From positions 18,591 to 82,590 of the forward strand of contig JALGSV010000002.1 of NCBI GenBank assembly GCA_029821755.1: DNA of 64,000 nt, in the 5' to 3' direction. How positions within the stretch are numbered: position 1 is the first letter of the stretch; each line of letters begins with the position of its first letter. Shown here piece after piece: positions 1-9,726 of this stretch. The translations under genes and the position numbers were made by a program. The notes beneath the pieces were generated by a model. That model saw only the letters and a program-made list of their open reading frames with translations, had not been told where the DNA came from and did not search any database. The stretch comes from Candidatus Zipacnadum vermilionense (GTDB taxonomy: Bacteria; Armatimonadota; Zipacnadia; Zipacnadales; Zipacnadaceae).

Positions 1-1780
1 GCAGTACATGACTAGCGGTCCGGAGATCGCCGCCTTCACCGTCTCCGCCAGCGGCCGGGACATGGAGTGGCTCGGACCGGACACGGATATCCCCGACACC
101 GCCGACTGGTTCCGCGCCGATGTCAACGGCTTCCGCCTGCGGCTCAAAGTCACCTCCGAGGTAGGCGTGGACCGGGTGCTGCTGTACGACGGCGAGCGCC
201 TGATCCGGCGATGGCTGCCCGGTGGGGAGAAGGTCTTCGAGATCGAGCTAGACCTGACCAACGCGCAGCAGTTCAACTACTGTGTGGAGGCTCACGACCT
301 GCAGGGCGGCATGGCCCTCACACCTGACTTCCACACCCAGCGCAACGATTGGGCCGAGTTCTTCTGCGCCGACCGCAACAACCAGCTCAACGTCGGCTAC
401 GAGAGGGCCGCAGACGGCACCGCCTTCGGCTGGTCCGGCACTATCTATCTGACCTACAACAACGGTAAGTGGGGCGGCTGTACTCCCACCACCGGCCGCT
501 TCTGGTTCCGCGACTCCCTGGCTCCGGTGCCCAACGACCCCGTCTATGACGAGATCGGCCCCTGGGACGGCGGCGTCAACACCCCCGGCGCCGCCTTCAA
601 CTTCAGCCTGGTCATGCCGGACCTCGACCCGCCCGAGTACGTCTTCATGACCACCCCGGGGCGGGAGCTCATCTCCACCGACATCGGCATCGGCCGCATG
701 ATCCTCCAGGACGGCTTCGACCTGTCCTGGCCCAACTTCGCCGGCGAGACTTACGTCGGCTGGAGTATGTTCCCCGTCTGTGAAACCCGCTACGTCCGCG
801 CCGAGCGCCTGGGTATGGTCTTCCGCCCCCGCCCGCGCTCGCTAGCCACGGTCATCTTCCAGTGGGACATCAGCCTCAAGCAGCCGGTCGAGTTCATCGA
901 ACCCCTCCAGGTCGGCTTCCTCGATGCCCTCGCTACCCACGTTCTGCACAAGGCGGACGGCTGCCGCGTGGAGATGGCTGGCGAGGGTGAGGACCCCCTC
1001 GACTTGACCTGGGAGCCCGGCGAGTACCTCATCTCCTGGACCCAGGGCCGCCGCCCGGCGATCTTCTTCAACGACAGCGTCCCCCTGCACCTGCGCCGAG
1101 CCCAGGCGGACTCCAGTGGCCCGCTGACCCTCGGGTGTGAGCCTGGCCAAATTGCCGCCTTCCTGGAGGGCGACTGTCTCCCCGCCCTGGACCATCCGGT
1201 CCGAATCAAGCTCCTCGGCATCGGCGGCGCCCACGATGACCGCGACCCGGAGATCGGCGAGATCGCCCTCCGCCAGATGGGTGTCCTGGGCGACCCCGCC
1301 TATCGCGTCGAGCTGGAATCCGGCGGCCTGCTCAGCACCCGCCTCCTTCTTACACTGGACGCACAAGGAACCGGCGTGGCCTGCCACATTCCGCAGGCCA
1401 ACTTGCTCATGGCAATACCGATCGCCGTGGAGAATCTCAACCCCAACTGGCCCACCGTCCTGGTGGACCGGGCGACCCGCCGCTGGCGCCCGCTGGGGAT
1501 GTTGGGGACCACCGCTTACGCCACCCTCGATACTCTCCCGCAGGACTGGAGCCTCTACCTGGGGCACCCCGTCACCGCTTCCGACCCCCAGGTGGTCCTG
1601 AGCCTGGCGCAGATCTCGCCGGAGGAGTGGGTCCTGGAGGCGCACAACCCGACGGACGAGGCGATGGACCTGAGGGTGCAACAGTCGCCGTACGCCGACC
1701 TGCTCAACTGGGAGGGCGCCGCCTGGAGGTTGGAGCCGGGGATGTCGAGGTTCGAGACGATCAGGGGGAAGGGTGACTGA
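1..1780 (+). CDS. 5'-partial secreted hypothetical protein, paralog of the C-terminal ~600 aa of the 40075..44004 protein
   Basis: ORF 8..1780 is open to the window start. It aligns with the C-terminal part of the 1309-aa protein at 40075..44004 (shared CADRNNQL, LIRRWLPGG/LIRRFLPGG, HNPTD motifs). The true gene probably extends upstream of the window. Confidence 0.6.
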   Translation, partial: QYMTSGPEIAAFTVSASGRDMEWLGPDTDIPDTADWFRADVNGFRLRLKVTSEVGVDRVLLYDGERLIRRWLPGGEKVFEIELDLTNAQQFNYCVEAHDLQGGMALTPDFHTQRNDWAEFFCADRNNQLNVGYERAADGTAFGWSGTIYLTYNNGKWGGCTPTTGRFWFRDSLAPVPNDPVYDEIGPWDGGVNTPGAAFNFSLVMPDLDPPEYVFMTTPGRELISTDIGIGRMILQDGFDLSWPNFAGETYVGWSMFPVCETRYVRAERLGMVFRPRPRSLATVIFQWDISLKQPVEFIEPLQVGFLDALATHVLHKADGCRVEMAGEGEDPLDLTWEPGEYLISWTQGRRPAIFFNDSVPLHLRRAQADSSGPLTLGCEPGQIAAFLEGDCLPALDHPVRIKLLGIGGAHDDRDPEIGEIALRQMGVLGDPAYRVELESGGLLSTRLLLTLDAQGTGVACHIPQANLLMAIPIAVENLNPNWPTVLVDRATRRWRPLGMLGTTAYATLDTLPQDWSLYLGHPVTASDPQVVLSLAQISPEEWVLEAHNPTDEAMDLRVQQSPYADLLNWEGAAWRLEPGMSRFETIRGKGD

Positions 1781-1832
1781 TCCCCACGTGGTCCGCCATG
1801 TACGACGGTCGCTCAGTGAGTGTCCCCTCCGT

Positions 1833-1857
1833 CCCCCTCTCCTGCAAGGAGAGGGGG
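1833..1857. terminator. perfect 10-bp stem hairpin (CCCCCTCTCC-TGCAA-GGAGAGGGGG) between convergent genes
   Basis: Inverted repeat read directly from the sequence. It lies between the stop of the 8..1780 gene and the stop of the minus-strand CHAD gene. No T-tract follows, as expected in a high-GC genome. Confidence 0.5.
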
Positions 1858-1924
1858 CAGGGGGTGAGGCTCCGCGGCTGGCGCGAGCAAGTCGCAGGCA
1901 TCGCGGCACTGGTGCGCGGCGACG

Positions 1925-2833
1925 CTAGTCCAATGCATCCAGTAGCGCGCTTCGCCAGGTCTCCTCGCCCAGGACGCCGATGGATTCGCGCGCGGTGACG
2001 TAGAGGGCCTCGCGGCGCTCCTGCAGGGCGCGGAGCGTCTCGCTGGTGCCCTTGAGCCGCCGGGCTTGCGCGTGGAAAAACTCCCTCAGTGCGGCGTCCA
2101 GCACGTCGCAGTCATGGGCCAGGCCCAGCGTCTCCTGGATCCCCGCCACGCTCTGGTACGGCCCGGCCAGCGCTGGCAGGGCCGAGAGCAAGGGCTCCAG
2201 CGTGTATTTGAGGCGCTTGACGACGATACGCAGGCGGTGCAGGGCAGCGGGATCGGCGGTCGCCTGCGCCTCGGCCAGGCGCTGGCCGGTGCGTTCCAGG
2301 CGGGCGTTGACGGCCAGATAGGCGAAGCGGTCTAGCGGCAGACCGCTCAACCGGCCTTTGTGTTTCCCCGTGTCCCGGGCTAGCCGCCGCAGGCGCGCCA
2401 CCAGCCGGTCCGGCCCGGCCAGCCGCTCCCACAGCTCGACCGTCGCCTCATGCGCCGTCAGCCGCTGCTCCTCCCAGGTCGCCACTGCCACCTCCAGGAC
2501 CGGTGCCGCCCCCGACACGGCCTCTGCCAGCTCCCGCGCATGCCCGATCAGCACGTCCCTGTCGCGCGCCCGCCCCAGACCGTCATTCAGATCCTCTACC
2601 CGCGGTAGTACCCGCCGCCGAGCCTTCACCGGCACCAGCCGCTGGAACAACCGTAGCGTTTCCCGTAGCCGCTTCACCGCTACCCGCAGATCATGCAGCC
2701 CCTCCACCTTCCCCGCGCACGCCGGTTTCACAGACGCCAGCACCTCGTCGGTCTTAGCATCTATCAGCTTACCCGCCGCTTTCCCGGCGCGGGTATTTGG
2801 CGTAAGTCCCTTGGGCAAAATAGGCTTGGGCAT
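1925..2833 (-). CDS. CHAD domain-containing protein
   Basis: Repeated CHAD-type helical motifs (LHDLRVAVKRLRETLRLF, LHRLRIVVKRLKYTLEPL). The ORF-track N-terminal extension (to 3028) is read-through of a palindromic repeat (RGAGFLARP translation). The real start is probably ATG at 2833 (MPKPILPKG). Confidence 0.7.
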   Translation of the reverse strand: MPKPILPKGLTPNTRAGKAAGKLIDAKTDEVLASVKPACAGKVEGLHDLRVAVKRLRETLRLFQRLVPVKARRRVLPRVEDLNDGLGRARDRDVLIGHARELAEAVSGAAPVLEVAVATWEEQRLTAHEATVELWERLAGPDRLVARLRRLARDTGKHKGRLSGLPLDRFAYLAVNARLERTGQRLAEAQATADPAALHRLRIVVKRLKYTLEPLLSALPALAGPYQSVAGIQETLGLAHDCDVLDAALREFFHAQARRLKGTSETLRALQERREALYVTARESIGVLGEETWRSALLDALD

Positions 2834-2856
2834 GGTGGTGTAGGGCAGGATCTCTT

Positions 2857-2934
2857 CCGCGTGGGGCGGGCTTTCTAGCCCGCGTTCCCCGCTGGTGTCC
2901 GTCCCCGGGCGGGCTAGAAAGCCCGCCCCACGCG
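2857..2934. repeat. REP-like palindromic repeat, type A pair (CCGCGTGGGGCGGGCTTTCTAGCCCGC ... GCGGGCTAGAAAGCCCGCCCCACGCG)
   Basis: Two inverted copies of the 26-nt unit separated by 27 nt. The same unit recurs at 31027, 33827 (degenerate), 60941 and 63435/63487. Confidence 0.8.
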
Positions 2935-2940
2935 CACGTG

Positions 2941-4326
2941 TCAGCACGTCACGTGCATAAACAGCGCCTTCGGCCCCTCGGCGGCATTGAAGGCTTCGGC
3001 GGCCTCCGGCGTCGGCAACAACTCCCATCGCACGCCCTGCGCGCGCAGGAAGGCCTCGGCGTCTTCGGTCAGGCGCACCATTTCCTGGAAGCCGGCCCCG
3101 ATGATCAGCAGGCTCGGGCCGCCCTTGATTACCTTCGCCAGTTCCTCCGGTCCCAGCACATGGGAGGTCCCGTAACGCCCGCGCGCCAGCTTCTTCTTCC
3201 GCGCTTTCAGCTTCCCCCCGGCTCGGATGTACAGGTCAGTCGCCAACTCCTTGCCGTTCACCACCGCGGCCCCGAAGCTGACGCTGTCCAGGTGCGGGTA
3301 GGTAGGAGCGGGATCCGCTTCGGCGGGGCAGCCTCCCTCCTCCGTCTGCGTCGGGCGGAATGGCTGCCCGCTGGTCTCGGCGTGGGCCAACGCCGCCGCG
3401 CCCAGGGCCACGGCATCGTCGCCCAGTTCCGAGAGCGCGAGGCGCAGCACATCCCGCGAACGCCGCAGGTGGTCGCCCCGTACCTCGGCCTCGATCAGTG
3501 GCATCAGAAAGTCGCCGCAAGCCTCCATCACACCCCCACCCAGGATGACCATATCCGGGTCCACTATATGCCGCAGGCTCACCACGCCCTGCCCCAGGTA
3601 ATGCCCCACGCGGGTCATAATCTCGGTAGTCAACTCATCGCCCGCGCCCAGGGCCTCCGCCAGCATGCCGCTGCCGACCCGCCCGGTTTCCGCGGCTTCC
3701 CGCAGAGACGACGTACGTCCAGCCGCCAAGCCTTCGCGCAGTTCCCGCTCAATGGCCGTACGACTGGCCAGGGCCTCGAAGCAGCCGGCATTCCCACATC
3801 CGCACCGTGGACCGTCGACGCTCACCACCATGTGCCCGATCTCACCCGCCTGGTCCTCAGACCCCGCCAACAACCGCCCGCCCAACACGACGCCGCCGCC
3901 GACGCCCGTGCCGACGAAGATACCCACCACATTCGCCACGCCCCGCCCAGCCCCCCGCCACACCTCCGCCAGCGTCCCCAGGTTCACATCATTACCCAGG
4001 AAGATCGGCACGGGGAAGCGTTCGGCCAGTTGGTCGCGCAGATGGGCATCGGCGTTAGACAGATTAGGCGCGTGCACCACCAGTCCCGCCCGGCTGTCCA
4101 CCACCGCCGGCACCGCCAGCCCCATGCCCGCCACCTCGCCGACGGTAGTGCCCGCCTTTGCCAGGACCTCACTCACCGCGGCCGCGATCTGGTCGCCCAG
4201 GGAGCCCTCTCGCGCGACCCTGAGCTTCTTGCGCCCCAGTATCTCGCCCTCCGCCGTCGCCACTACGGCCAGAATCTTAGTTCCACCCACGTCAACGCCC
4301 AGGTATAGGGACCGGTCTGCACTCAT
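2941..4326 (-). CDS. ROK-family sugar kinase (glucokinase / possible polyphosphate glucokinase) fused to a C-terminal Mth938-like (DUF498) domain
   Basis: N-terminus has LGVDVGGTKI and the ROK zinc motif CGCGNAGCFE. The C-terminal ~140 aa (SLLIIGAGFQEMVRL...EAAEAFNAAEGPKALFMHVTC) resembles the Mth938-like fold. GAGGTG lies 8 nt upstream of ATG 4326. Confidence 0.75.
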   Translation of the reverse strand: MSADRSLYLGVDVGGTKILAVVATAEGEILGRKKLRVAREGSLGDQIAAAVSEVLAKAGTTVGEVAGMGLAVPAVVDSRAGLVVHAPNLSNADAHLRDQLAERFPVPIFLGNDVNLGTLAEVWRGAGRGVANVVGIFVGTGVGGGVVLGGRLLAGSEDQAGEIGHMVVSVDGPRCGCGNAGCFEALASRTAIERELREGLAAGRTSSLREAAETGRVGSGMLAEALGAGDELTTEIMTRVGHYLGQGVVSLRHIVDPDMVILGGGVMEACGDFLMPLIEAEVRGDHLRRSRDVLRLALSELGDDAVALGAAALAHAETSGQPFRPTQTEEGGCPAEADPAPTYPHLDSVSFGAAVVNGKELATDLYIRAGGKLKARKKKLARGRYGTSHVLGPEELAKVIKGGPSLLIIGAGFQEMVRLTEDAEAFLRAQGVRWELLPTPEAAEAFNAAEGPKALFMHVTC

Positions 4327-4390
4327 CTGCTGCACCTCAAGTGCCGCCGGATCGGAAGGATTGCTGGCCTCTAGCGGCTAATGTAACGAC

Positions 4391-4954
4391 ATGGGAGACG
4401 ACACCGGCTTCGGGGCGATTCTGGGCCTGCTGGACCCCTCGGCGCCCCCCGAGGCTCACCGGGCGCTGCGCGAGGCCTACCTGTGGGCGCGAGAACTGTA
4501 CGGTGACCAACGGCGCCAGGACAGTTACTCCGTTCTCACTCACGCCTGCTCCGTCGCTGCGGACGTATCCCGCTTTGGGCACCGGGACCCGGAGATGCTG
4601 GCGAGTGCCCTCCTCCACGACGTTCTGGAGGTCACCCACGCCTCTCCCACCGAGATCGAGCGCCGTTTCGGCCCCCGCGTGCTGCGCCTGGTCGAAGCCC
4701 TCACCCATGGGCCCGGCGAGCCCACCGCGGTCTCAGCCCAACGCGCACTCGAAGCCGGCGAGGACGCCGTACTACTGCGCCTCTGTGATCGGCTCGACGG
4801 CCTCCGCCGTAGCCGCCTCCGCTCTCCCCTCTCCCGCTCCCGCTTCCTTGCCGCTACCCACGAAACTTACATCCCCCTGGCGGAGCAGCACTTCCCCGCC
4901 CTCGCCACCACGATGCGCCAAGCGCTCCGCGAAGTAGAGCAGACGCTGGAGTAG
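4391..4954 (+). CDS. HD-domain phosphohydrolase, RelA/SpoT hydrolase-like (small alarmone hydrolase-like)
   Basis: Motif ELYGDQRRQDSYSVLTHACSVA...LLHDVLEVT...EIERRFGPRVLRLVEALT resembles the (p)ppGpp hydrolase HD domain. Confidence 0.55.
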   Translation: MGDDTGFGAILGLLDPSAPPEAHRALREAYLWARELYGDQRRQDSYSVLTHACSVAADVSRFGHRDPEMLASALLHDVLEVTHASPTEIERRFGPRVLRLVEALTHGPGEPTAVSAQRALEAGEDAVLLRLCDRLDGLRRSRLRSPLSRSRFLAATHETYIPLAEQHFPALATTMRQALREVEQTLE

Positions 4955-5082
4955 AGCCACGTGCCTCCGATCACATGGCGGCCTACGCTACAGACACTCC
5001 CTTTCCCTATCCGGTTTCCTCTTGACCCCCCTCCCTATCAAGCGCGCGGAAGGTACGCAAGGGGGGCAGGGGAGGAGTCGCC

Positions 5083-5904
5083 TCAGCCATCCTCCAGCAG
5101 CGACGAGAAGAACTCCCGCAGCCTCTCCGTCGCCCCGCGCTTCTCCTCCTTCGGCTCCTCCGGAGTCTCCAGGATCCGCTCGGCGAACTCCGTGGTGATG
5201 ACTTGCCCCGGTATCATCCCCTGCACCACAGACTGGACGTGGCTCTGCAGATCGATGAATACCTCCCGGACGGTCCGGTTGGCGTCGACCACGGTGAAGT
5301 TGTACTCGTCCACCATGGTCTCGAACTCGCGCAACAGGCGTGCCTGGTAGGTCACGAAGCCCTCGTACATGTCGTCCAGACACAGGAAGTCCATCCCGGA
5401 TTCCCAGTAGTCAAATCCCCCACTGGCCAGGACGCGGGGAAGAAGCTTGTCCAGCGAGATCTTCAGGTACAGCACCAAGTCGGGCTTCAGGGCGAAGCCG
5501 TATAGCCGCCGCAGCCACGGCGCCTCCACGCCCCGCACCGCCGCTCGCGCTATCAGTGAGTAGGTGTAGCGGTCGGTCAGCACCACATACCCCGCGCGCA
5601 GGGCCGGGAAGATCTCGTTCTCCAGGCGGTTAGCGAAGTCGGTGGCGTAGAACAGGCACTGGGTGCGCCGCCCCATGGTGTGCCCGAGCTTCGCTTGCTG
5701 GATGTGCCGCCCGGCCAGGTTGCTCCGAGTCAGGCCCGTGTCGTAGACGGCCAGGCCGGAGCTCTCCAGCCAGTTGCGCAGTATCCGTGTCTGCGTGCTG
5801 CGACCCACCCCGTCGGTGCCCTCCAGGACGATCAGCTTGCCGGGTAGTTCCTCCTCGAGACCGGTCATGCCGGGGAGGGGAACCCAGTAGAACTCAGGGA
5901 TCAT
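5083..5904 (-). CDS. thymidylate kinase-like P-loop kinase (paralog 1)
   Basis: Walker A LIVLEGTDGVGRSTQ and a DRY(T)YS motif typical of dTMP kinases. 273 aa, longer than canonical Tmk. GGAGGTGA lies 8 nt upstream of ATG 5904. Confidence 0.6.
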   Translation of the reverse strand: MIPEFYWVPLPGMTGLEEELPGKLIVLEGTDGVGRSTQTRILRNWLESSGLAVYDTGLTRSNLAGRHIQQAKLGHTMGRRTQCLFYATDFANRLENEIFPALRAGYVVLTDRYTYSLIARAAVRGVEAPWLRRLYGFALKPDLVLYLKISLDKLLPRVLASGGFDYWESGMDFLCLDDMYEGFVTYQARLLREFETMVDEYNFTVVDANRTVREVFIDLQSHVQSVVQGMIPGQVITTEFAERILETPEEPKEEKRGATERLREFFSSLLEDG

Positions 5905-6714
5905 CTAACCCTCACCTCCCATCGGGAAGGCCGGTGCCCTGGCATCTGCCGGCTGGCGCAACAACCCTTCCAGGTGCGGCTTGACGATGTCGCGCATCTG
6001 CCGCTGCTGCTCGCCGATGGGCAGTGTGCCGTCGATGATGGTGAGGTCGAACTCCGTCGCCGCCTGGTCATACTGCTCCAGGATCCTCCCTTGAAACAGC
6101 GCGAAGCTCTCCTCCGGATCATCCGACAACCCCAGGTCCATCCCCGCCTCGTACCACTTCAACTCCGGCCGGCCCGAGAGAATGCGGTCTAGGGCCACCT
6201 CCAGCGGGACCCGGAAGTAGAACCCAACCGTAGGGCGCACGGCGAAGGAGTACACCTCCCGCACCCAAGCCGGGTCGCAACCGCGCGCCACGTCCCGTGC
6301 GAAGGCGGTGTAAACGTAGCGGTCCGCCAGCACCGCCGCCCCTGCCCGCAGTGGCGGCACGATGTTGCGCTCGGTCCGGTCCGCGAAGTCGGTGGCGTGG
6401 ATCAGGGAGAAGGTGAGAGGAGTGAGTAGCCGGCGCGATTTGCCACGCCGCGTGGTCCGCTTGACCAGCGGGGAGGAATTCCACTCCGAGAAAAATGTGC
6501 TGTAGCCTTGCGAAAGCAGCCACTTGTACAGCAGACTGATCTGTGTGCTCTTGCCCGACCCGTCAATACCCTCCACCACGAAGAGCCGACCGCGATAGTG
6601 CTCACTGGGTTGTGCCATCCCGACACCGCCGTTCTCGTAGTATAGGCTGTGACCTGTTGTAGGGCGGGGGCCGCCTCCCTCCCCGGTGGGGGCAGCATTA
6701 TAGTAGCCGCCCAT
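5905..6714 (-). CDS. thymidylate kinase-like P-loop kinase (paralog 2); alternative start ATG 6618
   Basis: Walker A LFVVEGIDGSGKSTQ and a DRYVYT motif. Its stop abuts the start of paralog 1 (0-nt gap). The long form carries a Gly-rich N-terminal extension. Confidence 0.6.
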   Translation of the reverse strand: MGGYYNAAPTGEGGGPRPTTGHSLYYENGGVGMAQPSEHYRGRLFVVEGIDGSGKSTQISLLYKWLLSQGYSTFFSEWNSSPLVKRTTRRGKSRRLLTPLTFSLIHATDFADRTERNIVPPLRAGAAVLADRYVYTAFARDVARGCDPAWVREVYSFAVRPTVGFYFRVPLEVALDRILSGRPELKWYEAGMDLGLSDDPEESFALFQGRILEQYDQAATEFDLTIIDGTLPIGEQQRQMRDIVKPHLEGLLRQPADARAPAFPMGGEG

Positions 6715-6758
6715 GACGATAGCAAGGCCTTCCTGCCCCGCCTGGAGAACATGCGCTC

Positions 6759-7706
6759 GTGAGACGCCCTTGTCCTGTCCCAGATCACTCTCCCGGCGCG
6801 CGCTACGTTGCTTTCGACGTGGGCAGCAATACCGTCCGCGCCCTTGCCGCCGCCTGGCAGCCTGGCGGCACCCTCCTGGTCACTCAGCAGGCCGGCCGCA
6901 TGACTGCGCTAGGGCGGGGGCTGTCGGCCACGCGGCGTTTACAGAAGGACACGATAGCCGACACCGCGGAGTTCGTCCGGGACTTTCTGGCCCAGGCCGG
7001 GCCTTTCCAGGAGGTTTTCTGCGCCGGGACGGCGGCGACCAGGGAGGCGCAAACCACCGGCGCGCTGGCGGCGGCCCTGCGCCGGCAGGGGGCGAAGCTG
7101 CAGGTGCTGACCGGCGAGGAGGAGGCGCGCCTGTCCTACCTGGGGGCACTCGCAGTTCTCGAGCTACCGACCGCCGTCCGGCCCCTGGTTGCCGACCTAG
7201 GCGGGCGCAGTATCGAACTGGCCCTGCGCCGGGGCAATCGCCTGCTAGGCCTCAGCTTGCCGCTTGGCGCTCGGGCCCTGACGGAGGCGTGCCTGCTCCA
7301 GGAAATCCCCTCCCGCTCCGAGATCGCCGCCGCACGTCGCGACGCCCATGCCGCCCTGGCCGCAGCCAACCGCCTCCTCGAGCAGGCAGGCCTGGTAGTT
7401 GCTACCGGCGGCACCGCCTTCGCCGCGGCTTTGCTGACCGGCCCGTGCTGGAGGCTTAGCGCCGATGCCCTCCAGCGGCTCCGCCGGCGGTTGTGCCGCC
7501 TCCCGCTCCCGGAGCGGCGTGAGGCAATGTCATTCGATCCGGAGCGCGCCGAGATTATCTGCGGGGGATTGATCGCGCTGGAGGTGCTGGCCGAGCGGGC
7601 GCCGGGCCGCCGCCTGACCCTCAGCCCCGGAGGCCTGCGAGAAGGTCTACTACTCGATCGCACCGGCGCACGGAGGGTGGCGTTCGCGGAGGGGATGCGA
7701 ATCTAA
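6759..7706 (+). CDS. Ppx/GppA family phosphatase (exopolyphosphatase / pppGpp phosphohydrolase)
   Basis: N-terminal YVAFDVGSNTVRAL and the overall Ppx/GppA actin-like fold pattern. GTG start in the ORF track. Confidence 0.7.
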   Translation: MRRPCPVPDHSPGARYVAFDVGSNTVRALAAAWQPGGTLLVTQQAGRMTALGRGLSATRRLQKDTIADTAEFVRDFLAQAGPFQEVFCAGTAATREAQTTGALAAALRRQGAKLQVLTGEEEARLSYLGALAVLELPTAVRPLVADLGGRSIELALRRGNRLLGLSLPLGARALTEACLLQEIPSRSEIAAARRDAHAALAAANRLLEQAGLVVATGGTAFAAALLTGPCWRLSADALQRLRRRLCRLPLPERREAMSFDPERAEIICGGLIALEVLAERAPGRRLTLSPGGLREGLLLDRTGARRVAFAEGMRI

Positions 7707-7719
7707 GCCCGGCGAGTCT

Positions 7720-9726
7720 TCAGAACACCGTCGCCAGCCCCACCAACTCCAGGCTGATCCGCCCGGTCTGTCGCGACCAAGACAGCCCCACCTCCCGGTC
7801 CTGGTAGACCTTCCGCCCTACGAAGAGCGACTGGTCCGAGTAGGACGACTCGTTCTGCCGATACCAGTTGCCCATCAACTCCACGCGCCACAGGGACGAC
7901 AGGTAGTAGTCCCAGGTCACCAGGCTGTACCAGTCTGAACTATCCAAATAGTCCTCCACGGTGCCGTACACCATCCATTTCCGGCCGTGGTAGGCTCGTA
8001 GTTCCGTCGAGATAACCTGCTGCCACCCCCCCCCCGCCATATTTCCGCTCAGGTGACTGGCGCTGTACCGCAGGTTCAGGTCCAGCGCCTCGCCGAACGA
8101 CCGTTTCAGTCGCACTTCCCCGCGCAGGTTGTTCCCGTGGAAGGGTGAGGTGTCCCAGGTGAAAACGTTGCTCAGGGAGGGAGTCAGGCGGGTGTTCCGG
8201 TCGAGCCGGATCGGCCGCCAGTCCATCGACCCGTACAGCTCCTGCACAAACTGCGGGTTGGTATTATTCAGGCCCGCACCTCTCTGCACCCCCGCCGACA
8301 CCCCTATCCGGTAGTACGGGCTCTGCACGGTCTTGCCAAACGGGCGCGGATCACTCAACCACTCCCCCACCGCTCCCCACGAGCTACCCAGGCCAGTCGG
8401 TTTCTGGTAGAAGCTGCGTAGGTTGACGCTGTACCCCGGACGGGAGTCGTACACCGACCCGTCATAGTACAAGCTCCTGTGGTCCGGCGAGGCCACGTTG
8501 AAGAAGGCGTTCGCTCCTCCCCAGATCGTCCGGCTGTCCCGCCACTGCGCCCCCCACTCGGACCTCGGCAGCCCGGACAGCGAAAGCACCCCGCTGGTCT
8601 GGCCTACCCGGTACTCATGTTGCAGCCCCAAACCCCACTCATCCGAGCCCATGATGCTGGTCGCCGGCGCCCCCTTCTGTAGGGCGACGGAGCTAGTCGT
8701 GTTCTCGCCGGCACTCAGGAAGTACGGGTAGTTGACCGCCAGGCCGCCACTGGAGCTAATCCCTAAGACCTGCGTGTTGGAGGCCCCCGTGTAGCCGGGA
8801 AGGGCGAAGATCCAGATCCGCGGCAGCGACATCAGCTTCTTCTCTTCGGTGTACAGCCCTCCCTCGCGGAATACCATCTTCTCGTTGCTGAAGACAGTGA
8901 CACGCTTGGCGATAATCCAGGTGGCGCTGGCGTCATCCTCCCGCTGGAAGGCGTCCTCAGGGATCTCCCAGTCCATGGCTCGCGCCTCGAGGGTGGCCAG
9001 ATCGAAGGTGACGCGTTCCACTCCCTCGCCACCCAAACGCCGCAGCACTCCTCGCTGGCGCTGCAGGTCCAGATAGAAATCCACCCCCTCCAACTCCACC
9101 TTGCCATCGGTCAGCACCCCCGGCCCGCCTCGCAGGATCATCTCTGCCACGTTCAGTTGCAGCAGATCGGCGCCTTCCAGCCGGATGCCGCCCATTCGCG
9201 CCCAGGCCTGGTCCCGCGTCTCTACCACCCCCTGGTCCACCGCGTACCCCGTCCAGCCTCCGCCCAGGTGCACGATATGCGTGTCGGCGAGGGAGGTCTC
9301 TCCGGGCCGGAGGAACACCACCGCGCCCTGTAGCCGAGAGTTCAAGGCGGTAACCGTGATGATGGCGGTGCCCGGCGCGTCGCTGACCAGGAAGGCGTTC
9401 ACTACGCCCCCGCGCGAGACCAGGTTGATAGTGGCCTCCCGATCGGCTCCGGTCGTAGTAAAGTAGCCGAAGTCAGTGTGCAAGACCACCGCCAGACCAT
9501 CGACGACGTAGCTGCCGTCGTCATTGCGCAGGTCCACGCGCAAGCGGGCGCGCGTCTTGCCGTCGGACGGCACGCGGTTCGGGGTAGCGCTCATGGAGAG
9601 GAAGACGCGGCCCATCAGGGCGCTCTGCGCACGGACCGGAAGAGGAACCGCCGCGCCGCCGGCACACAGCAGTAATCCGGCGGCGAGGCGCAGTAGGAGG
9701 ATTCCCGGCTTACGGATAGGGTTCAT
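7720..9726 (-). CDS. outer-membrane beta-barrel protein with N-terminal Ig-like domain, possibly LptD/OstA-like
   Basis: Signal peptide. N-terminal Big-1-like Ig segment. Long Gly/Ser/Tyr-rich beta-strand region ending in a terminal Phe (LELVGLATVF), the outer-membrane-protein signature. Confidence 0.4.
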   Translation of the reverse strand: MNPIRKPGILLLRLAAGLLLCAGGAAVPLPVRAQSALMGRVFLSMSATPNRVPSDGKTRARLRVDLRNDDGSYVVDGLAVVLHTDFGYFTTTGADREATINLVSRGGVVNAFLVSDAPGTAIITVTALNSRLQGAVVFLRPGETSLADTHIVHLGGGWTGYAVDQGVVETRDQAWARMGGIRLEGADLLQLNVAEMILRGGPGVLTDGKVELEGVDFYLDLQRQRGVLRRLGGEGVERVTFDLATLEARAMDWEIPEDAFQREDDASATWIIAKRVTVFSNEKMVFREGGLYTEEKKLMSLPRIWIFALPGYTGASNTQVLGISSSGGLAVNYPYFLSAGENTTSSVALQKGAPATSIMGSDEWGLGLQHEYRVGQTSGVLSLSGLPRSEWGAQWRDSRTIWGGANAFFNVASPDHRSLYYDGSVYDSRPGYSVNLRSFYQKPTGLGSSWGAVGEWLSDPRPFGKTVQSPYYRIGVSAGVQRGAGLNNTNPQFVQELYGSMDWRPIRLDRNTRLTPSLSNVFTWDTSPFHGNNLRGEVRLKRSFGEALDLNLRYSASHLSGNMAGGGWQQVISTELRAYHGRKWMVYGTVEDYLDSSDWYSLVTWDYYLSSLWRVELMGNWYRQNESSYSDQSLFVGRKVYQDREVGLSWSRQTGRISLELVGLATVF

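Follow-up and report, generated by a model that had tools for sequence, protein, structure and literature searches.

The gene at positions 2941 to 4326 (minus strand) of a 64,000-nucleotide (nt) stretch of contig JALGSV010000002.1 of Candidatus Zipacnadum vermilionense, referred to below in its full length as the window, encodes a kinase of the ROK family fused to a C-terminal Mth938-like domain (DUF498), and we consider it likely that the ROK clade to which this protein belongs is functionally tied to polyphosphate (polyP). The evidence is the gene context: polyP genes, that is, those for the polyP kinases PPK3, PPK1 and PPK2, the exopolyphosphatase PPX and CHAD-domain proteins, adjoin members of the clade, tailed or tailless, in 19 of the 25 loci with usable flanks, and adjoin other ROK genes in none of the 51 loci (729 kb) covered by the same scan (Fisher p=4.6e-13). 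This context, which was absent from the original prediction made for the gene, is the most informative feature of the system. As a whole model we favor, with moderate confidence, an ATP-dependent glucokinase coupled to the polyP store, with the DUF498 tail as an accessory domain. The functional readings of the fusion protein and its gene cluster are derived from sequence, structural models and gene neighborhood.

The fusion gene and the parts of its product are listed here, with residues numbered on the 464-amino-acid (aa) form that begins at a GTG at position 4335:

2941..4326, minus strand: ROK::DUF498 fusion gene, with the stop codon at 2941-2943 and the ATG at 4326 as in the public call P0001
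3379..4305, minus strand: ROK hexokinase domain (PF00480), aa 11-319
3775..3804, minus strand: zinc motif C178-G-C180-G-N-A-G-C185-F-E187, read from the sequence
3304..3369, minus strand: inter-domain linker, aa 323-344, containing PTQTEEGGCPAEADPAPT, with low predicted local distance difference test scores (pLDDT) and low identity
2944..3303, minus strand: MTH938/PH1505-type DUF498 domain (PF04430), aa 345-464
3160..3213 (equal to aa 375-392), minus strand: Lys/Arg-rich loop plus GTSH motif, GKLKARKKKLARGRYGTSH, aa 374-392, recognized by its Lys and Arg counts
2944..2955, minus strand: terminal H461-V-T-C464 motif, the Cys being the last residue, from the alignment of fused homologues

The fusion gene is one uninterrupted open reading frame (ORF), of 461 aa from the ATG at 4326 or of 464 aa from the in-frame GTG upstream, and P0001 (461 aa) is a 100% match to its product, in which two Pfam domains, PF00480 (ROK) and PF04430 (DUF498), were identified. 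When the whole protein was used as the query against 5.8 billion proteins, 2602 relatives were found, and both domains were present in every one of the 120 that were listed, at identities from 100% down to 44%; a search of protein databases for the same architecture, which had been suggested with the original prediction, was thus positive. The listed relatives are mainly 447-493 aa in length (a few are shorter fragments), and fused relatives stem from independent NCBI, JGI, ENA and Logan assemblies and fall into more than 120 protein clusters. Organisms named among them are Armatimonadota, candidate division WS1 and Thermoguttaceae, the nearest named relatives being Armatimonadota-like at ~60% identity, and in genome loci the fusion was also found in Pirellulales, Phycisphaerae and one bin labelled Anaerolineaceae. 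In none of the relatives among the loci compared were ROK and DUF498 found as separate adjacent genes. That the fusion is a real single gene, as had been claimed, is therefore close to certain. Conversely, an assembly or annotation artefact, in which two neighboring genes were joined through a frameshift or sequencing error, can be practically dismissed, and we rejected it, given that the same fused frame recurs in so many clusters and independent assemblies at such low identity, as well as in the genome and metagenome loci examined.

The fusion had been called unusual, and not known to have been described. We found no paper describing it in the literature searched, nor any that links Mth938/DUF498 to ROK kinases or to polyP; it is, however, widespread, being common in Armatimonadota, WS1 and Planctomycetota, and so neither rare nor special to the source genome. 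Public databases already contain the architecture, but their names pass over the tail, the listed relatives being called, where a source name is given, "ROK family protein" or "glucokinase". On the opposite strand, an ORF of 456 aa (2938..4308, plus strand) mirrors nearly the whole fusion gene. Long antisense ORFs are frequent in this window of ~67% G+C, so that it most probably represents a shadow ORF rather than a gene.

The ROK part was, as originally predicted, found to be a complete kinase with its zinc motif. The PF00480 match reached 217.3 bits against a cut-off of 22.9 and covered profile positions 1-293 of 294 (aa 11-319), and the kinase motifs were invariant or nearly so in an alignment of 104 fused homologues. 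These included the following: the ATP motif D15-G17-G18-T19, the catalytic N115-D116 and G142-T-G144-x-G146, the sugar and zinc residues E165 and H168, as well as E187 and G266-G268, and among them the zinc-motif residues C178, C180, C185 and E187 were invariant. Each of the kinase-type motifs DxGxT, GNDxN (with the catalytic Asp), GTGxGxG, GEIGH and CxCGxxGCxE was found in the window protein. The protein can thus be placed in the ROK family (PF00480), and its ROK part is predicted to be an active, catalytically intact zinc-type hexokinase. The best NCBIfam match was TIGR00744 (ROK glucokinase), at 185.7 bits; since this is under the cut-off of 260.35, glucose is a likely rather than an established substrate.

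The nearest solved relatives are the ATP glucokinases of Enterococcus faecalis (2qm1), Thermus thermophilus (3vov) and Streptomyces griseus (3vgk), which have the same fold as the ROK part (31-33% identity, template modelling score ~0.85) and share the catalytic, sugar-binding, ATP and zinc motifs, but stop after the ROK domain, whereas the window protein adds a 120-aa domain. Consistent with this difference, only ROK proteins were among the 50 PDB matches listed in a Foldseek search with the full-length model, and the tail was unmatched. The longest alignment among them spanned 376 columns of the 464-residue query, the matched chains had at most ~400 residues, and none of the 50 structures spanned both ROK and DUF498. 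The window protein is also unlike TIGR00744-type ATP glucokinases in its score below the cut-off and in the location of its clade in polyP clusters. With its proposed tie to polyP it resembles the actinobacterial polyP/ATP glucokinases, represented by the Arthrobacter glucomannokinase (1woq), which is likewise a ROK-fold hexokinase tied to polyP. However, those enzymes have a single domain without a DUF498 tail, and 1woq matched only the N-terminal half of the window protein, at 42 bits (E=6.5e-10), compared to 157 bits for 2qm1. With no polyP-glucokinase (PPGK) model among the NCBIfam matches of the window protein, membership in the actinobacterial clade was rejected. By analogy, the fusion protein may nevertheless act like an actinobacterial polyP glucokinase at the level of the pathway.

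In the window, the fusion gene is part of a cluster in the order PPX, PPK3-like pair, HD_4, ROK::DUF498 and CHAD, whose other members are as follows:

1925..2833, minus strand: CHAD-domain gene (PF05235, 113 bits), 107 nt downstream of the fusion gene on the same strand
4391..4954, plus strand: HD_4 (RelA/SpoT-type HD hydrolase) gene (PF13328, 62 bits), divergent from the fusion gene
5083..5904, minus strand: thymidylate-kinase-like gene, putative regulatory PPK3 subunit (PF02223)
5905..6714, minus strand: thymidylate-kinase-like gene, putative catalytic PPK3 subunit (match to 2plr/5h70)
6759..7706, plus strand: Ppx/GppA-family exopolyphosphatase gene (PF02541, 113.5 bits), divergent from the PPK3 pair

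The start of the CHAD gene was set at MPKPIL, matching homologues of ~300 aa. The assignment of the PPK3 pair is based on the two thymidylate kinase (Tmk)-like products having 2plr/5h70 as their best solved relative: the product of 5905..6714 matched it at E=5e-56, compared to ~4e-12 for true Tmk, and that of 5083..5904 at E=3e-38, compared to ~1e-14. This Sulfurisphaera tokodaii protein is a homologue of the catalytic subunit cPPK3, and PMC12995831 (2026) shows Sulfolobus homologues of it to form a heteromeric polyP kinase, PPK3, which mainly produces ATP from ADP and polyP and was assayed in vitro by coupling PPK3 with hexokinase. The paper further gives the Sulfolobus acidocaldarius operon as sixA-ppx-cPPK3-rPPK3-CHAD and states that most PPK3 carriers are without PPK1 and PPK2; a sugar kinase neighbor is not mentioned in its main text. 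Like that operon, the window has two adjacent Tmk-like paralogues closest to 5h70, and the order of ppx, PPK3 pair and CHAD is common to both; unlike it, the window cluster is bacterial, lacks sixA, and has ROK::DUF498 and HD_4 inserted between the PPK3 pair and CHAD. Neither PPK1 nor PPK2 was found within the 64-kb window. Because both Tmk-like products match 5h70 far better than Tmk and the gene order is the same, the window appears to carry a bacterial PPK3-type cluster with ROK::DUF498 inserted before CHAD. Within the pair, 5905..6714, whose product is 73-83% identical across Armatimonadota/WS1-like relatives and is the best conserved of the cluster, probably encodes the catalytic subunit, and 5083..5904 probably the regulatory one. 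The true start of the catalytic gene is probably near 6618, given that its homologues are 237 aa long.

The HD_4 gene, the start of which is ~60 nt from that of the fusion gene, breaks the row of PPK3, ROK::DUF498 and CHAD. It is also divergent from the fusion gene in L011 and L084-L087. Its product is small-alarmone-hydrolase-like, a pairing hinting at a (p)ppGpp-polyP connection. The divergent arrangement of PPX and the PPK3 pair was also seen in L004/L005. In the region between these genes, a sigma-70-like promoter match, TTGCTA-17-TATAAT (10/12; 6725..6697, minus strand), lies ~80 nt upstream of the likely start near 6618; it was the sole one in 1700..7000, and no intrinsic-terminator-like sites were found in the same interval. 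The cluster is flanked by an ORF of 590 aa without a Pfam match (8..1780, plus strand) and by one of 668 aa with a signal-peptide-like N-terminus and weak Big_1/Invasin_D3 matches below the cut-offs (7720..9726, minus strand).

For the comparison of loci, the window proteins were used as references together with PPK1, PPK2, PPX and CHAD of L013, a locus in which, as in L015, these four were confirmed by Pfam. The sample is modest and partly redundant, as it includes the related pairs L002/L003, L004/L005, L013/L016, L014/L015 and L096/L097; a narrower domain alignment used for the locus search gave 12 metagenome loci. The arrangement closest to that of the window, PPK3a-PPK3b followed by ROK::DUF498 and CHAD, in some cases preceded by PPX, was present in L002-L005, L089 and L092 (Armatimonadota, WS1 and related metagenome loci), with gaps between genes of 8-35 nt in L002-L004, and ROK::DUF498 was directly followed by CHAD in L086-L088 and L090. 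In L096/L097 the order is the reverse of that in the window, with a 464-aa CHAD gene preceding ROK::DUF498 and overlapping it by 4 nt. In two Phycisphaerae loci (L013 and L016) the fusion gene is convergent with a row of PPK2, PPK1, PPX, PPX' and CHAD, the convergent gene ends in L013 being 68 nt apart. The PPX' of these loci is a second, short PPX-like segment between PPX and CHAD (L013, 16245..16811; L016, 8220..8804), with 36-37% identity to the adjacent PPX.

The same association was found for members of the clade that have no intact tail. Among the ROK-only relatives (L020-L023), L020, L022 and L023 (Planctomycetales and Omnitrophota) adjoin CHAD, PPK1 or PPX. In L014 and L015 a gene with a decayed tail lies beside PPK1-PPX-CHAD, and in L017 one with a truncated tail lies beside PPK1; in L017 and L019 (Thermogutta and Blastopirellula bins) just a short stub starting "KKYPD" is left. 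Both GTSH and HVTC are lost in the tails of L014, L015 and L018. The proteins with these decayed tails (L014, 2785..4128; L015, 10001..11344; L018, 6027..7343; Phycisphaerae-like) end in ...LLHLG or ...LLLMG, and GTSH is replaced. L014 and L015 are near-identical, yet they are labelled Anaerolineaceae and Phycisphaerae, respectively, in the records of the metagenome-assembled genomes; one of these bins is probably misassigned, and a "Chloroflexota" occurrence of the fusion is therefore not to be trusted. In a neighbor-joining tree (which carries no support values) the clade is set apart from most other sampled ROKs, with L025 falling beside the group, and ROK-only genes and those with a truncated or decayed tail are interspersed with the fused ones. 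It is thus the ROK clade as such that is associated with polyP; the association extends across the three types of polyP kinase, and the clade in polyP clusters spans Armatimonadota, WS1, Planctomycetota and Omnitrophota. Several losses or decays of the tail have left the polyP context in place, and the tail is therefore an accessory part, essential neither for catalysis nor for the polyP link.

The tail itself is, as had been proposed, a C-terminal Mth938-like domain. It matched PF04430 at 41.1 bits in the full protein and at 43.7 bits alone, compared to the cut-off of 33, and structural comparison gave it the MTH938 fold, so that the window protein belongs to the MTH938-like/DUF498 family. 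The full-length model had a mean pLDDT of 93, with each domain above 90, and a predicted template modelling score (pTM) of 0.72; that the latter was no higher despite the confidence in both domains fits two rigid domains joined by a flexible tether. The pLDDT in the linker fell below 50 at aa 332-340. Among 116 fused homologues, mean identity to the window protein was 58% in the ROK domain and 54% in DUF498, compared to 15% in the linker, the length of which ranged from 9 to 50 aa. Judged from these identities, the two domains are under similar constraint and the linker is unconstrained.

Across the fused family the tail is exactly 120 aa long, with no insertions or deletions. Its conserved set comprises F354-G355, D367, R379, K381, G389-T-S-H392, E398, G413-x-G415, N450 and H461-V-T-C464; in domain numbering, the residues that vary little or not at all are F10-G11, D23, G30, R35, K37, G45-T-S-H48, E54, G69-x-G71, N106 and H117-V-T-C120. 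All 116 fused homologues end at the position of C464, and H392, H461 and C464 are all kept in 112 of them. The first of these (domain H48) is 94-100% conserved in every class, whether ROK-fused, stand-alone or CHAD-fused, and the same range holds for H117 and C120 (H461 and C464) in ROK-fused and stand-alone members, as against 50-75% in four CHAD-fused members. The H-V-T-C end was also found in most stand-alone DUF498 members and in two of the four full-length CHAD-fused ones (P0168 and P0189). In the 19-position loop before GTSH, Lys and Arg together averaged 8.2 in ROK-fused compared to 5.9 in stand-alone members, and H392 of the motif itself was at least 97% conserved. In the secondary structure of the model, the GxG loop, the PTP helix cap and HVTC each follow parallel strands, and we infer that they line one crevice.

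A relation to NDUFAF3 had also been proposed. Membership in the Mth938-like family stood, but the tail appears closer to the archaeal proteins MTH938 and PH1505, and NDUFAF3 gives no functional guidance. We define the MTH938/PH1505 subgroup here by the GTSH motif and an H-x-T-C that ends the protein; both align between the window tail and the structures of PH1505 (2cyj) and MTH938 (1ihn), which places the tail in this subgroup rather than with AAMDC or NDUFAF3-type proteins. The AAMDC/NDUFAF3-type Mth938 domains (2ab1, 2fi9, 3cpk and 2gm2) have 17-25% identity to the window tail, and the alignment to 2ab1 (AAMDC) is, unlike the window tail, shorter over the basic loop and without the terminal HVTC. 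In eukaryotes, NDUFAF3-type proteins have a role in complex I assembly and the reported role of AAMDC is that of a signalling scaffold, neither of which has an evident relation to the context in the window. MTH938 and PH1505 are free-standing archaeal proteins of ~115 aa, whereas in the window the domain forms the C-terminal end of a kinase, and they give no mechanism for it; no reported function for a prokaryotic MTH938/DUF498 domain was found in the literature searched.

The 119-aa tail gave three matches as a query against a word-indexed protein database, and a profile search of representatives was used instead, in which 2267 of 1.84 billion representatives were found at E<=1e-3. The best 150 of these were mostly stand-alone proteins of ~115-125 aa, including, by their source names, members from Bradyrhizobium, Rhodoplanes and a Methanopyri archaeon; the others were ROK fusions and five fusions to CHAD (P0168, P0189, P0212, P0223 and the fragment P0181). 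The CHAD::DUF498 proteins are 553-622 aa in length (loci L006, L007 and L075-L077) and are rare offshoots of a Planctomycetota-type CHAD family of ~500 aa that is mostly tailless. Their N-terminal region may resemble Ppx-GppA domain III, which is annotated by Pfam in some of the ~500-aa relatives, although the direct comparison gave E=0.13. In L075-L077 a PfkB sugar kinase gene converges on the CHAD::DUF498 gene at a distance of 6 nt from its end.

Around the stand-alone DUF498 genes, neither a polyP link nor a conserved metabolic partner was found in the contexts examined. A PEBP-family (PF01161) gene adjoins the domain in a Bradyrhizobium and in one bacterium unrelated to it (L008-L010 and L079-L080), a PstS-like ABC transporter adjoins it in Methanopyri, and a PCMT gene does so in one locus. 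In two archaeal loci (L083, 7001..9149; L093, 9998..12104) DUF498 is in a row with a TrmB/MarR regulator and a Metallophos phosphoesterase of ~400 aa. Fusions of Metallophos to CHAD (P0391 and P0393) were seen in the CHAD search, and together these neighbors and fusions may hint at a phosphoesterase link.

In the coupled glucokinase that we favor, the neighboring PPK (PPK3 here, PPK1 or PPK2 elsewhere) would regenerate ATP locally from polyP and ADP, and the ROK kinase would spend that ATP on the formation of glucose-6-phosphate, serving as a glucose-phosphorylating outlet of the polyP store. Such a coupling would be the same as that of PPK3 with hexokinase in the in-vitro PPK3 assay. CHAD has been described as a polyP-granule-binding module (10.1101/2024.08.28.610084). 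We propose that the tail uses its Lys/Arg-rich loop to anchor the kinase to the surface of the polyP/CHAD granule or, alternatively, that its His/His/Cys site is where a metal or a phosphate-containing effector binds, as suggested by the basic loop, the occasional fusion to CHAD and the adjacency of CHAD in two gene orders. Several observations weigh against this model. The CHAD::DUF498 fusions are rare, two of the four full-length ones have a decayed terminal motif, and they could derive by deletion from an adjacent CHAD and ROK::DUF498, for which reason they are not fully independent evidence. The stand-alone DUF498 genes lie in heterogeneous, unrelated contexts (PEBP, TrmB-Metallophos, PCMT). 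Four loci with an intact tail (L001, L011, L012 and L084) are without a polyP gene within 10 kb, and tail intactness is uncorrelated with polyP adjacency, as exemplified by L014/L015 with their decayed tails; the polyP link may, in consequence, belong to the ROK part alone.

A different use of the same parts would be a new type of glucokinase that is directly polyP-dependent, in which the basic loop of DUF498 binds polyP and hands the donor to the ROK site, a conserved His possibly relays phosphate, and the fusion switches a ROK kinase of the ATP type to the use of polyP. The location in polyP clusters with three PPK types, the enrichment of the Lys/Arg-rich loop in ROK-fused members, the invariant His/His/Cys site and the CHAD fusions are all compatible with such an enzyme, and a flexible tether would let the tail reach the active site. 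We nevertheless consider it unlikely, as the ROK part is remote from 1woq in comparison with 2qm1 and has kept a full ATP site, the pTM gives no confident inter-domain interface, and the presence of ROK-only and decayed-tail relatives in the same clusters means that the polyP link cannot depend on the tail. Equally doubtful is the broader proposal that the MTH938/PH1505-type domain is a polyP-handling module, the Lys/Arg loop binding polyP and the His/His/C-terminal-Cys site perhaps relaying phosphate or a metal, and that its tethering to an ATP-type ROK gave a second, independently evolved class of polyP-dependent glucokinases. If true, a structural-genomics orphan fold, solved in 2001, would thereby receive its first biochemical function.

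We are similarly skeptical that the protein is an ATP glucokinase of the ordinary kind, whose tail is regulatory and binds a ligand or metal, and whose polyP neighbors share only its regulation under phosphate or energy stress. DUF498 would then sense a small molecule or metal, or mediate oligomerization, with no physical or metabolic coupling to polyP. The adjacency is, however, tight and recurrent (the 4-nt CHAD overlap in L096, the 8-35 nt gaps in L002-L004 and the 68 nt in L013), it is maintained in different gene orders and with different PPK types, which is more than would normally come from loose co-regulation, and DUF498 is also fused directly to CHAD. Least probable of these alternatives is a bifunctional enzyme in which a His/Cys site of DUF498, at the C-terminal edge of the sheet, catalyzes a second reaction, with the sugar phosphate or polyP as substrate. 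Consecutive steps are often joined by fusions, and D367, R379, H392, E398, H461, T463 and C464 are nearly invariant in fused and stand-alone members, as in active sites; yet no fold neighbor of the tail with a known enzymatic function was found in the structural comparison, the domain was lost or decayed in several lineages with no visible replacement nearby, and the stand-alone members are without a conserved metabolic partner.

The coupled-glucokinase model, with its accessory tail, bears on polyP use in the host bacteria. The clade of ROK glucokinases in polyP clusters comprises at least four phyla and three types of polyP kinase and offers a candidate route by which these bacteria use polyP to activate sugars; it might also supply polyP-driven kinases for biocatalysis without ATP. 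In Armatimonadota/WS1-like bacteria, the recently described PPK3-type operon is seen to include an additional kinase gene, and the operon thus appears to encode the very PPK-hexokinase coupling of the in-vitro PPK3 assay. For the prokaryotic MTH938/DUF498 domain, a genomic lead to function is provided by three features together, namely that it is tethered to a kinase linked to polyP, that it is occasionally fused to CHAD and that its His/His/terminal-Cys site is invariant.

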